Of a stretch of 14,865 nt of DNA, positions 7,335-14,579 are shown piece after piece (within the stretch, counting starts at the first letter, position 1; every line of letters starts with the position of its first letter). A program made the position numbers and the translations under genes. The notes under the pieces were generated by a model, which ran no database searches, was not told the DNA's origin, and saw only the letters and a list, made by a program, of their open reading frames with translations. This stretch comes from a virus. The DNA is taken from UHGV virus genome UHGV-0294841; one strand, given 5' to 3'.

Positions 7335-7450
7335 TCCTGGTTAAATTTCATTTTTCGCGGGTATAAAAAAACGATGGGGCGGGCAGTCCGGAAGACGTCA
7401 GGTCACAGGGATTTGACCCGCCCCTCCCCTCTGGCAATGGGAACTGGTTC
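7335..7450 (-). other. Candidate cos/packaging-recognition region
   Basis: 116-bp non-coding gap between HNH and small terminase. Contains an 8-bp GC inverted repeat, ggggcggg (7376-7383) and cccgcccc (7417-7424), 33 bp apart, plus an A7 tract at 7366-7372. In HK97-like cos phages, cos lies between the HNH gene and terS. Confidence 0.4.
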
Positions 7451-7801
7451 TTACTTCAGCCGTTCACGGGCCGTCTTCGCCTTATGACACGGCCAGCACA
7501 GACTCTGCAGGTTACTGTCGGCATCGGTGCCGCCATGCGCTTTGGGAATGATGTGGTCAACGGTTTTCGCCTCGCGCACCACACCGGCACGCAGACACAA
7601 CTGACACAGGCCTTTGTCACGCTTCAGGACACGCGCGCGGATACTGTCCCACTTCGAACCGTAGCCGCGCTGATGACGGGATTGTCCAGGTTTGTATTGC
7701 TTCCAGCCTTCGCTTTTGTGGCTTTCGCAGTAGCCTGAAGGGTCCGTGGTTGTAGAGCGGCAGCCGCGAACACGGCAGGCTTTTGGGGTTCGTGGGGGCA
7801 T
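7451..7801 (-). CDS. HNH homing-type endonuclease, packaging-associated
   Basis: 116 aa with paired Cys ('CRVRGC...C'), a 'DHIIPKAHGG' catalytic His and 'N...CWPCH' zinc motif. Sits immediately upstream of terminase. GGAG SD present. Confidence 0.9.
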   Translation of the reverse strand: MPPRTPKACRVRGCRSTTTDPSGYCESHKSEGWKQYKPGQSRHQRGYGSKWDSIRARVLKRDKGLCQLCLRAGVVREAKTVDHIIPKAHGGTDADSNLQSLCWPCHKAKTARERLK

Positions 7802-7921
7802 ATGTACTCCAATGAAGAAACCAGCGAAATAGCTGCCTTCATTCGTAGTAAACCTTTTTCATCAACGCAGTAATGGATTCTTTGAAGAGTCGCGATCAAT
7901 ACAACTCACTAATGGAGAGAC

Positions 7922-7941
7922 TTGTCTCACGCATGAGACAA
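7922..7941. repeat. Perfect 8-bp-stem palindrome (ttgtctca-cgca-tgagacaa)
   Basis: Seen directly in the intergenic region between HNH and bor. Followed on the plus strand by the T-rich 'atttcccgtttgattt'. Could be a terminator or a protein-binding site. Confidence 0.4.
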
Positions 7942-8022
7942 ATTTCCCGTTTGATTTAATGGACACTATAGAGGGACAGAATGCCTTCCTCACTCGAATC
8001 ACATCAATTAAGGAGGTTCAAC

Positions 8023-8145
8023 ATGTTTCATTCCCCAAGTCATCAGGCTGTAATTATGGCAGCATCAGTTTGTGCCACAGACCTTTTCCGCTTCACTTTG
8101 AGCCTGATTCATTTCTACCTGACCGGCTCGCCTCTATCTTTTTAA
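8023..8145 (+). CDS. Possible small hydrophobic peptide (40 aa) with near-consensus RBS
   Basis: AGGAGG at 8011-8016, 6-nt spacer, ATG at 8023. Encodes 'MFHSPSHQAVIMAASVCATDLFRFTLSLIHFYLTGSPLSF'. No family recognised; the call rests on the RBS alone. Confidence 0.3.
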   Translation: MFHSPSHQAVIMAASVCATDLFRFTLSLIHFYLTGSPLSF

Positions 8146-8325
8146 TCCCCGCTTTATCCAAATTGCATTGCCAGAATGCCGACAACAGACTGACATTCAA
8201 ATCCTGACTACCTCCAATAGTCTGATCGTACACCTATATAGTTTTAATTTTCATCAATCCATTTAACTATCGTTTAATTGTTGTCACATAGGATTCTGCC
8301 GTTTTTAACAATGCAGGATAATAAG

Positions 8326-8619
8326 ATGAAAAAAATGTTGTTTTCTGCCGCTCTGGCTATGCTTATTACAGGATGTGCTCAACAGACGTTTACTGTTGGA
8401 AACAAACCGACAGCAGTAACACCAAAGGAAACCATCACCCATCATTTCTTCGTTTCGGGAATTGGACAGGAGAAAACTGTTGATGCAGCCAAAATTTGTG
8501 GCGGCGCAGAAAATGTTGTTAAAACAGAAACCCAGCAAACATTCGTAAATGGATTGCTCGGTTTTATTACTTTAGGCATTTATACTCCGCTGGAAGCGCG
8601 GGTGTATTGCTCACAATAA
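8326..8619 (+). CDS. bor: Bor outer-membrane lipoprotein (lambda Bor-like, serum-resistance moron)
   Basis: 'MKKMLFSAALAMLITGCAQQTFTV...EARVYCSQ' matches my recollection of lambda Bor closely, including the ITGC lipobox. I take the start as ATG 8326 (AGGA 8 nt upstream), not the track's TTG at 8278. Opposite strand to the late operon, AT-rich. Confidence 0.9.
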   Translation: MKKMLFSAALAMLITGCAQQTFTVGNKPTAVTPKETITHHFFVSGIGQEKTVDAAKICGGAENVVKTETQQTFVNGLLGFITLGIYTPLEARVYCSQ

Positions 8620-8650: not shown

Positions 8651-9112
8651 CTATCTGCACTGCTCATTAATATACTTCTGGGTTCCTTCCAGTTGTTTTT
8701 GCATAGTGATCAGCCTCTCTCTGAGAGTGAAATAATCCCGTTCAGCGGTGTCAGCCAGTCGGGGGGAGGCTGCATTATCCATGCCGGAGGCGGTGGTGGC
8801 TTCACGCACTGACTGACAGACTGCTTTGATGTGCAACCGACGACGACCAGCGGCAACATCATCACGCAGAGCATCATTTTCAGCTTTCGCATCAGCTAAC
8901 TCCTTCGTGTATTTTGCATCGAGCGCAGCAACATCACGTTGGCGCACCTGCATGTCAGTAATTGTCGAGTTCGCCAGCTTCAGTTCTCTGGCATTTTTGT
9001 CGCGCTGGGCTTTGTAGGTAATCGCGTTATCGCGGTAATGATTAACAGCCCATGACAGGCAGACGATGACGCAGATAACCAGAGCGGAGATAATCGCGGT
9101 TACTCTGCTCAT
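8651..9112 (-). CDS. Rz: Rz i-spanin
   Basis: 153 aa with N-terminal TM ('[20 protein letters not shown]') and coiled-coil periplasmic domain. ATGA overlap with R. Closely resembles lambda Rz. Confidence 0.9.
8710..8892 (-). CDS. Rz1: Rz1 o-spanin lipoprotein, embedded in the +1 frame of Rz
   Basis: '[23 protein letters not shown]...[15 protein letters not shown]' has a lipobox (VVGC) and proline-rich stretch and is nearly identical to lambda Rz1 as I recall it. Entirely nested inside Rz. Confidence 0.85.
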
Positions 9113-10088: not shown

Positions 10089-10233
10089 AAGTTGTGTGGC
10101 GAAGTAACCACTCTTAACATGATACATCACTTTTTGCGGACCGTGCTAATGAAATATGTTCGTTAATTTAGTATGTTAAGGACTATCTAAATTGCCTTCA
10201 AAAAGTACAAAAAAATACAAAAAAGGGTTTCTT

Positions 10234-11331
10234 ATGAATGAGCAAACGATCAACCTTTTAAGAGATATCACCGAACGTGTTGGATGGAAGCTCACAAAAA
10301 AAATTGTGGGGGAACCACTTGGTGTCACATCAGTTGGCCTTGACCCATTTATCGCGAGGCTCCAAGCAACAGAAGATGTAGATCAGGAAGCTGTAAGTAC
10401 TCATATAGGTGAAGTATGGCAAAATTTACTATTGAGTGGGACCCGTTTAGTTAAGCTGTATAAGTTAGAACCGGAAGAAGTGCAAACTCTACGGGAGAAT
10501 ATAAATGCCCTAGAAAGAGACGAATCCGTTTTTTGCGAAAGCTATCCATATCCTTTGCCTAAAGATGTGTTGCTTGCAGCTGATACAGATCTTCATTTTT
10601 TAGAAACTACATTTTCTGTCGTAAACAAAGTTTCTTTAGAAACAACGATTCTTACGTCGAAAGCATACTACACAGAAACTATTGAACTCGACGCGACCCA
10701 TTTAAGCGATGCTGGGCTAGCTCTTCGCTCCAATGGTGGTGAAATCAAATGTAAAACACGTGAAGTTACACAGTGCTTTAATACAATAATGATTCTACCC
10801 GAGTTGCATTTACTTGCGCTCACTGTTGATTTATCTGTGATGCCTCGTTCAGAGTCGGAACGACAGCAATTTTTGCTTGATCAGTTTATTAGAACTACTA
10901 CTGGTTTGACTTTACCTGCGCCCATTGACCTCTTTGGATTAGTACAAGAAATGTACGAGCAAACAGATGGTAGAATCTCGCAGATGTCATTTCTTACATC
11001 AGATGGAAACACCAGCTCATTAAAACTCCGTCCGGGTGAAAGCTGCTTGCGCTCAGACAGCTACCATCATGGGGGCGAAGAGGCAAGTCCCATACTAACG
11101 AAATACAAACTCGGTAAAATTTGGGATCTGACTGATTCAGCTTCTCAAGTTTTCCCTGTAGAATTAATACTGCCAGGTAAACGGGCTATGATTGATAAAC
11201 CGAACAGTCACCTTTATGATGCAATCATAGATCGTTGCTCCTCAATTGAGCATATTTTGTTTGTAATCAACAAGATGTTAGAGTCACTATCAAGCATACA
11301 GAGAAAGCGAGCCACTGACGAGGCTGCATAA
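10234..11331 (+). CDS. Hypothetical protein A (365 aa), first gene of an AT-rich three-gene insert; no recognised domain
   Basis: 1.1-kb ORF in ~40% GC DNA (flanking phage genes roughly 50% or higher by my hand count), where chance ORFs are short. ATG 10234 preceded by AAAAGGG; the track's earlier start at 10192 is a TTG. 10-bp gap to gene B. Confidence 0.75.
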   Translation: MNEQTINLLRDITERVGWKLTKKIVGEPLGVTSVGLDPFIARLQATEDVDQEAVSTHIGEVWQNLLLSGTRLVKLYKLEPEEVQTLRENINALERDESVFCESYPYPLPKDVLLAADTDLHFLETTFSVVNKVSLETTILTSKAYYTETIELDATHLSDAGLALRSNGGEIKCKTREVTQCFNTIMILPELHLLALTVDLSVMPRSESERQQFLLDQFIRTTTGLTLPAPIDLFGLVQEMYEQTDGRISQMSFLTSDGNTSSLKLRPGESCLRSDSYHHGGEEASPILTKYKLGKIWDLTDSASQVFPVELILPGKRAMIDKPNSHLYDAIIDRCSSIEHILFVINKMLESLSSIQRKRATDEAA

Positions 11332-11341
11332 AGAGTTGATT

Positions 11342-11764
11342 ATGTTAACTAAACACGACATATACTCGAAAATCAACCACGACCTACATGGGCCGGTTGG
11401 AGATTTATGTCGTGTTGTGGTTGATTTTTTAACCAGCAAAGAAGCTAAGTCACTGAAACACATAACATATGTAAGTTTGGTTAATGGTACTAAGCTTGAT
11501 GTGCAAAATAACGATGCCAAAGTTTTACTGATCAAAGTAACTGACTATCTTTCGAGCAACAGAATGCACTTGCTAGATATGCATTTCCAGTATATCGAGT
11601 CTGACGATAGTGATCCTATTCCCGTCGATGATGATGACGTGTCTCATGCGCTTCATACAGGTAAGTTTTATCATCCTTACAGTGGTCAATTAGTCGATAA
11701 TTATAATCATTATTTGTTCCCATACTTCACTCCTACTGAGGCTTTGGAGGAATTACATGAGTGA
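11342..11764 (+). CDS. Hypothetical protein B (140 aa), acidic
   Basis: ATG 11342 with AAGAG SD. Stop overlaps gene C start by 8 bp (ATGAGTGA). Acidic tract 'ESDDSDPIPVDDDDV'. No family recognised. Confidence 0.7.
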   Translation: MLTKHDIYSKINHDLHGPVGDLCRVVVDFLTSKEAKSLKHITYVSLVNGTKLDVQNNDAKVLLIKVTDYLSSNRMHLLDMHFQYIESDDSDPIPVDDDDVSHALHTGKFYHPYSGQLVDNYNHYLFPYFTPTEALEELHE

Positions 11765-12392
11765 ATGTAATTTCAACCTTGCCCAATTAGACACCTTAAG
11801 TCAATTTGACCCTGAATTGTCTGGTTTTCTTAAGCGAAAATTTGCAGCAAGTCACGACGATTTCGTGAAGCAACTTTACGTTGACCTTGATGACGCGATG
11901 TATGTTTTGGAAACCCAAAAACATATGTATCAAACACAGCAGTGGGGTGAAGATGAGCTCACATCAGTTATTATTGCTTTTTTGAAAGGCCGTAATTATG
12001 ACGCTGAACATGACACTCAGCATGGAGGGCATATAGATATATTAGTTAAACATCAGCTCGGCCGATTTGCATGGATTGGCGAAGCTAAATTATGGAAAGG
12101 TCCTGCGTACATCTTAGGTGGATGGAACCAGCTCAACGAGCGATATGGCACTGGCACTGCGCGTGACAACCATGGTGGCATTATCATTTACTGTAAAATT
12201 AAGAAATCTGGCGAGAGACTTGATGACTGGCGAAAGCATCTTCAGCAGGAAGTAGCTGATGCAAAAATTACAACCGACGAGGATAATCCCTTGCGATTCA
12301 TGAGTACAACATTGCATCCAGCTACAAATCAACCATATTATGTAAGACATATGGTCGTTTCATTATTTCATGCTACAGGAGACTCAGAGTAG
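11757..12392 (+). CDS. Hypothetical protein C (211 aa) with PD-(D/E)xK nuclease-like motif
   Basis: 'GEDELTSVIIAFL...GGHIDILVKHQLGRFAWIGEAKLW' places an Asp at the end of a hydrophobic strand 15 residues before an E-A-K triplet, the classic PD-(D/E)xK arrangement, with an upstream Glu-containing helix. ATG start coupled to gene B. The 3' end overlaps the Q gene 3' end by 25 bp, convergently. Confidence 0.75.
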   Translation: MSECNFNLAQLDTLSQFDPELSGFLKRKFAASHDDFVKQLYVDLDDAMYVLETQKHMYQTQQWGEDELTSVIIAFLKGRNYDAEHDTQHGGHIDILVKHQLGRFAWIGEAKLWKGPAYILGGWNQLNERYGTGTARDNHGGIIIYCKIKKSGERLDDWRKHLQQEVADAKITTDEDNPLRFMSTTLHPATNQPYYVRHMVVSLFHATGDSE

Positions 12393-12754
12393 TCATCCAT
12401 TTCAAGTTTCACATCCAGCATACTTAGGCAGCCATCGATAAAACCTTCAGCAACCTGTATCTCGATACGTATCAATTTTTCGTCTTTATTACGTGCCTTT
12501 GCGATCTTTCTTTTCGAGATGCCATACAGGTAATGAGCCACAATCAAAGAATGTTCGTACGGTTTTCTCTTCTTAAGAAGAGCAAGGCTACCTTCAATAA
12601 TTAATGCATCACTATCTGAACAAGCTAGACGTGTCTTTCTGGTATATGGAAGAAGCCCCTTAAACCCAGCAGCTATAGACGAATAGTCAACTCCTGAGCT
12701 ATCACTCGCTGCCCATGCCCCCCAACGTTCAAGGATCATCTGTATATTACGCAT
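12368..12754 (-). CDS. Q: Late-gene antiterminator Q (21/82/QuuD-like family)
   Basis: 'MRNIQMILERWGAWAA...SSIAAGFKGL...IEGMLSMLDVKLEMD' resembles QuuD/Q21-type antiterminators as I recall them, and the ~128-aa size fits. Start taken as ATG 12754 with GGAGA SD. Sits upstream of the lysis cassette. Confidence 0.75.
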   Translation of the reverse strand: MRNIQMILERWGAWAASDSSGVDYSSIAAGFKGLLPYTRKTRLACSDSDALIIEGSLALLKKRKPYEHSLIVAHYLYGISKRKIAKARNKDEKLIRIEIQVAEGFIDGCLSMLDVKLEMDDYSESPVA

Positions 12755-12772
12755 CAACTTTCTCCGAAAAAA

Positions 12773-13769: not shown

Positions 13770-14579
13770 TCAATGAACGGTATCGAGCAGCTTTAACAGC
13801 TCAGGGAATCGGGATTCGAAGAAATGCGGCTGCGTCTCGCGCGGATTTGCGGGACTGGTGATGTTCTTGCCGAACATGCAGCCTTTCGCTGTCAGCGACC
13901 AGAATTTTTTGATGTTGTTAATCGCGGTACGACTGTATCGTTCGCGTTGTTCAACGATCCCCAGCTTCGCCATCTGGTGATATGCCTGATTAGCCGTCAG
14001 GCGTATACCATACTGTTTCAGCAGTGCACTCAGTGACAGTGTCGGGCGACTTGAGCCATCGTGTGCATCAGCAGGAGCATCAATGGCATAGCGCGGTGCC
14101 AGATTCGGTAAGCCAACAGCCTCCTGGAGTTTCTGACAGGCACCAAGCACAGATGAGTTAGACAGGTTTAACTCCCGACGCATAAAGTCCAGCAGAATCA
14201 CACCAGCCTGCATCTTGTCAGCAGCCTGTCCGGATAATTTTTCCGGTGCGCTGGTTACCATGTCGAAAGTACGGATCACCTTCAGATGGAATGACGGGCT
14301 GATCCACATTGCATAGGCATACACCAGTTCCTTGCAGACATAAGTTCCCCGTTCATTTCCCCCATGAATCACACTCACCGGGTCAACACCCAAATTCTGG
14401 GTGTTGGTCAATTCATGAACAAGCTCAACAGTTTGTTGGCTGGAAAGAAACTTTCCCGGCTCCTTGGTTCTGGCATTTGCACCAGATGCTACTGCTGCGC
14501 GATGCAGATCGTTCAGGCTGTAACGCCCATAAGCATCACGACGAACTTCAATACCATCAATGACCATCAGATTATTCAT
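13770..14579 (-). CDS. KilA-N domain protein (antirepressor-like)
   Basis: N-terminus 'MNNLMVIDGIEVRRDAYGRYSLNDLHRAAVASG...' is KilA-N-like. I start it at ATG 14579 (GAGGAG SD about 10 nt upstream) rather than the track's GTG at 14612. Confidence 0.7.
   Translation of the reverse strand: MNNLMVIDGIEVRRDAYGRYSLNDLHRAAVASGANARTKEPGKFLSSQQTVELVHELTNTQNLGVDPVSVIHGGNERGTYVCKELVYAYAMWISPSFHLKVIRTFDMVTSAPEKLSGQAADKMQAGVILLDFMRRELNLSNSSVLGACQKLQEAVGLPNLAPRYAIDAPADAHDGSSRPTLSLSALLKQYGIRLTANQAYHQMAKLGIVEQRERYSRTAINNIKKFWSLTAKGCMFGKNITSPANPRETQPHFFESRFPELLKLLDTVH

Follow-up and report, generated by a model that had tools for sequence, protein, structure and literature searches.

Architecture of the cassette between the HNH and bor/iss genes

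The region described here lies in the virus genome UHGV-0294841, a 14,865-nt stretch of DNA that is called the window throughout. The window is a lambdoid/HK97-like prophage of Escherichia coli, with 100% identity to strain NT1F10 over the region compared. Its late operon is carried on the minus strand and runs in the order Q (12368-12757), holin, endolysin, Rz/Rz1 (8651-9112), HNH (7451-7801), small and large terminase, portal, protease, and capsid genes. In the 526-nt gap between the minus-strand HNH gene and the plus-strand bor/iss gene, an earlier note, prepared from the letters of the sequence, had pointed out a palindrome, a near-consensus ribosome-binding site, and a 40-amino-acid (aa) open reading frame (ORF), and all three are present there. 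Alignments of relatives revealed two additional sequences upstream of the ORF and on its strand, P1 and P2, which resemble the promoters of single-subunit phage RNA polymerases. The interpretation given to the locus earlier changes, because both of these phage-polymerase promoters had been overlooked.

Taken together, the region is one cassette of lambdoid and HK97-like prophages, located between the lysis and packaging genes on the strand opposite to the late operon. The order of its elements is P1, a stem-loop containing an SP6-like palindrome, P2, a short leader with a strong Shine-Dalgarno (SD) sequence, and a gene of 37-40 codons for a predicted single-helix membrane peptide with a conserved C-terminal tail (Table 1). 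The 261-nt cassette was found in 626-631 of 5,426 complete E. coli genomes (about 11.5%). It was unannotated in every sampled RefSeq record, and the ORF is listed as hypothetical in one GenBank phage record.

Table 1. Positions of the cassette elements and adjoining features in the window (PWM, position weight matrix)
Feature	Positions	Strand	Remarks
P1, Berlinvirus/T7-type promoter, CAATACAACTCACTAATGGAGAG	7897-7919	+	Predicted start G7914; Yepe2 PWM
5' stem-loop of the P1 transcript (core palindrome 7922-7929/7934-7941)	7914-7948	+	Copy of the SP6-like phage palindrome, K1E form TGTCTCAC..GTGAGACA
P2, K1E/SP6-type (Molineuxvirinae) promoter, ATTTAATGGACACTATAGAGGGA	7954-7976	+	Predicted start G7971, 52 nt before the ATG; K1E PWM
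5' stem-loop of the P2 transcript (GAGGGA...UCCUC)	7971-7991	+	Weak; at +1; could instead pair with the SD
SD, AGGAGG	8011-8016	+	6-nt spacer TTCAAC to the ATG
40-aa gene, MFHSPSHQAVIMAASVCATDLFRFTLSLIHFYLTGSPLSF	8023-8145	+	ATG 8023-8025, 40 codons, TAA 8143-8145; N-terminal half variable, C-terminal motif conserved; family alignment A4
LysC-type o-spanin gene, 3' remnant	8093-8212	-	Alignment with SfIV and E. coli H7 (lysC intact there), BLAST limits, minus-strand translations
bor/iss lipoprotein gene	8328-8619	+	Downstream, co-oriented neighbour; not a universal part of the cassette

Phage-type promoters and the associated palindrome

PWMs were made from the annotated or recovered promoters of T7, SP6, K11, K1E, and the Yersinia phage Yepe2 (a Berlinvirus; 13 annotated promoters). 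These matrices are small, and all shuffles in the analysis were mononucleotide shuffles. With the Yepe2 PWM, P1 scored 29.0, compared with 26.9-37.3 for the natural promoters and 7.6 for the runner-up in the window, and none of 500 shuffles reached 29. One P1 allele is identical to the annotated Yepe2 phi9 promoter at 22 of 23 positions. In addition, the P1 allele of SfIV has 22 contiguous nt in common with the promoter region of the E. coli Berlinvirus CarlSpitteler, including the T at −1 that is a hallmark of the Berlinviruses. K1F was also tried as a model for P1 and gave no match. P2 scored 27.8 with the K1E PWM (natural K1E promoters, 26.5-37.8; window runner-up, 7.3), and its commonest prophage allele, ATTTACTGGACACTATAGAAGGA, is the same as the K1E promoter at 13925 (23 of 23 positions, or 25 of 25 by BLAST). 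P1 and P2 are the only such sites in the window. As is characteristic of Autographiviridae promoters, each of them is a 23-bp sequence extending from −17 to +6 whose score falls inside the range of the phage's own promoters.

The T7, SP6, and K11 PWMs were also run over both strands of 1.04 Mb of related prophage DNA. They returned 236 sites of 15 bits or more, every one of them inside the cassette and on the cassette strand. Twelve of these sites fall in a duplicated copy of the cassette. A tandem duplication of about 287 nt is present at six loci (L041, L043, L047, L050, L081, and L092), where a decayed copy of the promoter and leader that has lost the SD and ATG, together with the first bases of the HNH gene, is followed by an intact cassette. 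A tblastn search with the T7, K1E, and SP6 polymerases detected no polymerase homologue in the prophage DNA examined (1.13 Mb, with the whole SfIV genome among it). Since the cognate polymerase was not found in the same prophage DNA, P1 and P2 are to be regarded as promoter sequences without a resident polymerase.

The palindrome consists of an 8-bp stem (TTGTCTCA and TGAGACAA) and the loop CGCA, and occupies positions +9 to +28 of the predicted P1 transcript. This transcript folds from +1 over its first 35 nt (−15.6 kcal/mol, z = −5.1), and comparable hairpins start natural Berlinvirus transcripts. Short inverted repeats are common, and the palindrome alone is not beyond chance in one sequence. 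Among the relatives, the stem covaries: 91.7% of the cells in its 10 pairs are paired, 4 pairs are altered on both sides, and none of 500 shuffles was as good. The proposal in the earlier note that the palindrome might serve as a terminator found no support, since the terminator scan reported none at 7922-7950, and the tail reads AAATTTCCCGTTTGATTT.

The two main palindrome alleles of the prophages, TCTCA/TGAGA and TCCAA/TTGGA, are forms of a palindrome that is repeated in SP6-like phages with the consensus TGTC(C/T)(A/C)AC-NN-GT(T/G)(G/A)GACA, and both differ from the SP6 or K1E form at two positions at most. SP6 contains nine copies of TGTC(C/T)AAC..GTTGGACA, K1E eight copies of TGTCTCAC..GTGAGACA at positions matching those in SP6, and the Klebsiella phage FBKp16 seven copies; shuffled SP6 and K1E genomes gave 0.01 copies. 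The prophage DNA (1.1 Mb) contains 122 copies, every one of them in the cassette. The palindrome is often found 3-14 nt upstream of a promoter in SP6-like phages. It precedes P2 by 13 nt in the window, the corresponding distance being 14 nt at K1E 15900 and SP6 14254, and the palindrome-then-promoter unit of the prophages mirrors the natural units at K1E 15900, SP6 14254, and FBKp16 10386.

In the virulent phages themselves, the analysis also points to a repeated, lineage-specific element. SP6 (L013), K1E (L120 and L126), and FBKp16 (L140) have 7-9 copies of the 18-nt palindrome, and these occupy matching places in the genomes. Copies are found at the left end, ahead of the tandem promoters located just past the polymerase gene, within the primase gene, and in front of several gene starts. 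The form of the palindrome is uniform within a phage and different between SP6 and K1E. Because the form differs between phages in concert, a phage-specific factor may recognise it, and because most SP6 copies have a U-G pair on the sense strand, a role at the RNA level is suggested.

The predicted P2 transcript also has a stem-loop at its 5' end. In the window this is a weak structure (−6.1 kcal/mol, z = −0.8); relatives have a stronger one (−10.5 kcal/mol, z = −3.8 in the L138 type). When the CCUUCCUC segment was considered as an anti-SD sequence, its fold was no better than that of shuffles (z of about −0.7 to −1.0).

A change of promoter type at the same position, with the rest of the architecture retained, was observed among E. 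coli, Shigella, Klebsiella, and other contexts. In SfIV, P2 and the palindrome are both of the SP6 form, and the E. coli loci combine a K1E-type P2 with either form of the palindrome. In Klebsiella prophages, the ORF is present as a 38-aa version in a conserved module of about 470 nt, both flanks of which are mosaic. P1 in these prophages is either Berlin-like (TATTAAGACTCACTATTGGGAAG, score 29.8) or K11-like (AATTAGGGCCCACTATAGAGACC, K11 score 28.8), and P2, CAATAGTGGCGAGTATAGAACGA, fits the consensus TAATAGTGGCGAGTATAGAAGAG of the Klebsiella SP6-like phage FBKp16. Moreover, their palindrome and promoter, taken as a unit, run almost collinear with FBKp16 10386-10430. An FBKp16-type promoter recurs in two further loci, L136 and L138, together with a palindrome and a stem-loop at +1. 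At about 2330-2355 of a Pseudocitrobacter faecalis locus (L133), an inverted repeat, CCCCTATAAGTGATAG...CTATCACTATAGGGG, lies upstream of a divergent 38-aa ORF; its right arm seems to resemble the core of a T3/T7-type promoter.

Conservation and properties of the 40-aa gene

The spacing between AGGAGG and the ATG had been thought unlikely to arise by chance. AGGAGG followed by ATG after 5-9 nt occurs twice in the window, compared with 0.48 expected, and at least two occurrences were obtained in 17 of 200 shuffles, so that the spacing alone does not distinguish this site. Each of the elements is within chance when taken alone; their significance comes from comparison, that is, from the conservation of the ORF, the covariation of the stem, and the match to the SP6-like palindrome. 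The AGGAGG sequence is invariant in a seven-sequence E. coli/Shigella alignment and is replaced by AAGGAAG in three IMG/VR loci. The Klebsiella, L136, L138, and L133 members, whose leaders are unrelated, have strong SDs of other sequence.

A check on whether relatives keep the ORF or only its SD had been proposed. The ORF, SD, and ATG were intact at all 108 loci retrieved with an anchor in the leader, outside the ORF, and when the anchor was the 3' end of the ORF, all 70 unique contexts likewise had an intact ORF. Among 22 unique ORFs of the E. coli/Shigella type, the polymorphic sites in codons 21-40 numbered 0, 0, and 6 at the first, second, and third codon positions, respectively, and all were synonymous. 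When all types were compared over the last 15 codons, 10 of 10 polymorphic sites were synonymous; the six that fall outside the search pattern are all third positions. The leader-anchored scan added two singleton replacements in these 15 codons, I to S (L124) and L to M (L125).

The 3' half of the ORF overlaps lysC sequence. The final 17 lysC codons of SfIV are antisense to the small ORF, and the remnant in the window is antisense to it over 53 nt. Constraint on lysC as the cause of the conservation was ruled out, because the variation is almost wholly synonymous for the ORF, whereas the lysC residues change. The third positions of the ORF correspond to the second positions of lysC, whose residues change, and in Enterobacter, which lacks the ORF, lysC ends before this segment. 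It is therefore apparent that the constraint on the 3' half belongs to the ORF. A lysC-anchored scan of species-representative genomes yielded three species, one of which (Pseudocitrobacter) has a divergent ORF. Since the two other species have lysC without the cassette, lysC does not require the ORF. No match was obtained in the species-representative genomes with a pattern located inside the ORF. A profile search of 1.84 billion proteins detected two divergent members of 37-38 aa, P0019 and P0021. All divergent members are located between the lysis cassette and the packaging genes, on the opposite strand, and have a strong SD in an unrelated leader.

The peptide has a grand average of hydropathy (GRAVY) of +0.77, and AlphaFold modelled it as a single helix over residues 5-34, with a mean predicted local distance difference test (pLDDT) score of 82. 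An N-in, C-out topology is suggested because the N-terminus is basic in most members. The invariant tail ...LTGSPLSF-COOH (8119-8142, G-x-x-L-x-F) appears to resemble the C-terminal signal by which outer-membrane proteins are recognised by the barrel-assembly machinery and the DegS stress sensor. A tblastn search of phage records with the peptide returned temperate phages only and no member of the Autographiviridae. Purifying selection in its own frame, the retention of an SD and ATG in unrelated leaders, and the existence of divergent family members make it very likely that the ORF is a genuine gene, translated into a hydrophobic helical peptide, and to this extent the earlier note is supported.

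Some alleles, that of the window among them, have a further in-frame ATG at 7981, from which the ORF would be 54 aa long. This ATG is without an SD and lies 10 nt past the P2 start. Gene callers sometimes choose the 54-aa form (extension at 7981-8022 in the window).

Possible role of the cassette, alternative explanations, and history of the site

The alignments and matrix scores establish the identities and the conservation of the promoters, palindrome, and gene, as well as the switching of promoter type. From these observations, we infer that transcription of the cassette depends on the polymerase of an invading phage. Because a polymerase gene was not found in the prophage DNA searched, the cassette would be silent in the lysogen until a virulent T7-like or SP6-like phage infects the cell and makes its own polymerase. 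The peptide gene would then be transcribed by this enzyme despite any shut-off of the host polymerase by the invader, and the membrane-active peptide would most likely serve abortive infection or exclusion. The activity of the peptide and its benefit to the lysogen are speculative. We put the chance that the polymerase of the invader triggers a membrane peptide for abortive infection or exclusion at about even.

A wider interpretation is offered more tentatively, as a possibility that falls short of even odds. The cassette may be a natural 'borrowed-promoter' immune trap, in which temperate phages have copied the promoters and an RNA element of virulent T7-like/SP6-like phages in front of a tiny membrane-peptide gene. 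The invader's polymerase, which escapes host shut-off, would thereby act as the sensor of the attack and also drive expression of the killer or excluder, and the promoters would have been swapped over evolution to track the local virulent phages. The types tracked would be K1E, SP6, and Berlinvirus in E. coli/Shigella, and K11 and FBKp16 in Klebsiella.

Several points weigh against a polymerase-triggered defence. P1 and P2 of the window score at the low end of the natural ranges. The sampled loci are closely related, so that the counts of loci do not represent independent events. Codons 1-20 have 10, 10, and 5 polymorphic sites at the three codon positions, which is no coding signature except that the frame stays open. 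Pfam, PHROG, and PADLOC gave no usable match for three peptide variants, and hence no known toxin or defence family. The sigma-70 scan that detected no host-type promoter for the ORF also missed any bor promoter, so that the cassette may be expressed in the lysogen. T7-like phages degrade the host DNA, which limits the time available. Finally, this account rests on sequence, from which transcription, translation, toxicity, and phage resistance are all predicted.

Of the other explanations, the most probable is that the unit mimics an origin or regulatory site, so that in the prophage it titrates the invader's polymerase or a palindrome-binding factor, or primes replication, with the ORF being secondary. 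The palindrome-promoter pairs of SP6, K1E, and FBKp16 sit directly after the polymerase gene. The primary replication origin of T7 is at that position after the polymerase gene, and tandem promoters have a role in it. The near collinearity of the Klebsiella unit with FBKp16 agrees with this explanation, as does the presence of one palindrome form per phage, differing between phages, which suggests a phage-specific recognising factor. However, mimicry of this kind leaves the conserved SD and ATG, the fixed length of the ORF, and its synonymous-only variation unexplained, and a single chromosomal copy would be a poor sink for polymerase. We therefore consider it unlikely.

Slightly less probable again is the explanation that the ORF is merely the first gene of a larger cargo, in which a polymerase running through from P1 and P2 would express bor/iss and the genes at 10192-12392, or would produce RNA antisense to the lysis genes. 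T7-type polymerases terminate poorly at host terminators. In most E. coli loci, the bor/iss gene follows the ORF on the same strand, and three plus-strand hypothetical genes, the third with a weak match to a PADLOC candidate, lie between the holin gene and Q. On the other hand, the small ORF alone is present in all contexts, whereas the plus-strand genes downstream differ or are absent; for instance, SfIV gp49 is unrelated to the gene of the window.

The cassette could also be a neutral scar of recombination between virulent Autographiviridae and prophages, its promoters being fossils and its ORF having no function. Such an origin would fit the confinement of Autographiviridae homology to the short promoter and palindrome segments, and the mosaic junction with its lysC remnant, bor insertion, and tandem duplication at six loci. 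The same architecture nevertheless turns up repeatedly, in E. coli, Shigella, Klebsiella, and elsewhere, with promoters of differing specificity, the ORF is under purifying selection, and the cassette is carried by about one in nine complete E. coli genomes, which makes a neutral scar quite improbable. Very improbable is the reading of the earlier note, a type I toxin or small membrane regulator that the host polymerase would express in the lysogen under antisense-RNA control, with the palindrome as terminator or regulator: the ORF is indeed small and hydrophobic with a strong SD, and the late transcript of the prophage would be antisense to it, but an insensitive scan detected no sigma-70-like promoter on either strand, the palindrome failed the terminator scan, no Rfam family was found at the gathering threshold in the whole window or at E ≤ 1 in 7780-8360, no known toxin family was matched in Pfam, PHROG, or PADLOC, and the two phage-type promoters and phage-type palindrome would be left unexplained.

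The cassette has features in common with several known systems. Tandem T7-like promoters, two or three together and without a polymerase gene, were reportedly described by Chen and Schneider in 2006 (Nucleic Acids Res 34:1133; PMC1380254) in prophage-like islands of enterobacteria, in clusters said to span 150-620 bases. By this account, the islands would resemble the cassette in having T7-group promoters clustered in prophage-like DNA that lacks a polymerase gene, whereas P1 and P2 of the cassette start only 57 nt apart. That paper is not known to describe the small conserved gene, the SP6-type palindrome, or the switching of promoter type. The present locus may or may not be among those islands. 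With the late units of the Autographiviridae (T7 phi10-type: promoter, 5' stem-loop, strong SD, gene), the cassette shares a 23-bp promoter with a score in the natural range, a stem-loop at +1, and an AAGGAGG-type SD, and with the SP6-like phages it shares a palindrome just upstream of a promoter. In contrast to the Autographiviridae units, its carrier is a temperate lambdoid prophage, where the search for a polymerase gene found none, its two promoters belong to different subfamilies, and its gene is without a homologue in the Autographiviridae records. In engineered phage-triggered suicide systems of Lactococcus, a phage-inducible promoter drives a lethal gene by way of a transcription activator and the host polymerase. 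Their logic is the same, with a promoter used only by the invader and a harmful product; they are artificial, whereas the cassette is natural and its function is predicted. Small hydrophobic helical peptides are also encoded by type I toxin-antitoxin systems (Hok/Sok, TisB/IstR, Ibs/Sib), but the cassette yielded no antisense RNA gene, host-type promoter, or family match. In the literature library searched, no paper was found on the small gene, the link to the palindrome, or the promoter switching.

If a polymerase-triggered defence is correct, its sensor would be the invading phage's own transcription machinery, which would explain how a lysogen responds after T7-like phages have silenced the host polymerase. 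About one-ninth of complete E. coli genomes, that of O157:H7 among them, and Klebsiella prophages would gain a previously unannotated gene. T7-, SP6-, and K1E-like phages are used in phage therapy. The cassette would bear on the host range of such phages, and the promoter allele of a strain might predict which phages it resists.

The surroundings of the cassette differ among prophages. In the window, the right end of the lysC remnant is the junction with a lambda-like bor module, and the lambda-like Rz/Rz1-bor module joins at about 8207-8212. The remnant is, as judged from the alignments, what was left behind when this module replaced a LysB/LysC module. The bor/iss gene is missing from SfIV-type and most Klebsiella contexts. 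In some Klebsiella prophages (L007/L009, 3510-3887, plus strand), the small ORF is followed on the same strand by a 125-aa gene with no Pfam or PADLOC match. The three hypothetical genes at 10192-12392 of the window are co-oriented with P1 and P2 and encode products of 379, 142, and 211 aa. No Pfam family was found for any of them, and the weak match of the third is to the PADLOC candidate family PDC-S54 (E = 6.9e-6). Because SfIV has unrelated genes at the same spot, this segment looks like a variable cargo/defence hotspot. The genome ends of HK97 and SfIV fall between the HNH gene and that for the small terminase; by analogy, the cos site is expected at 7335-7450 of the window.
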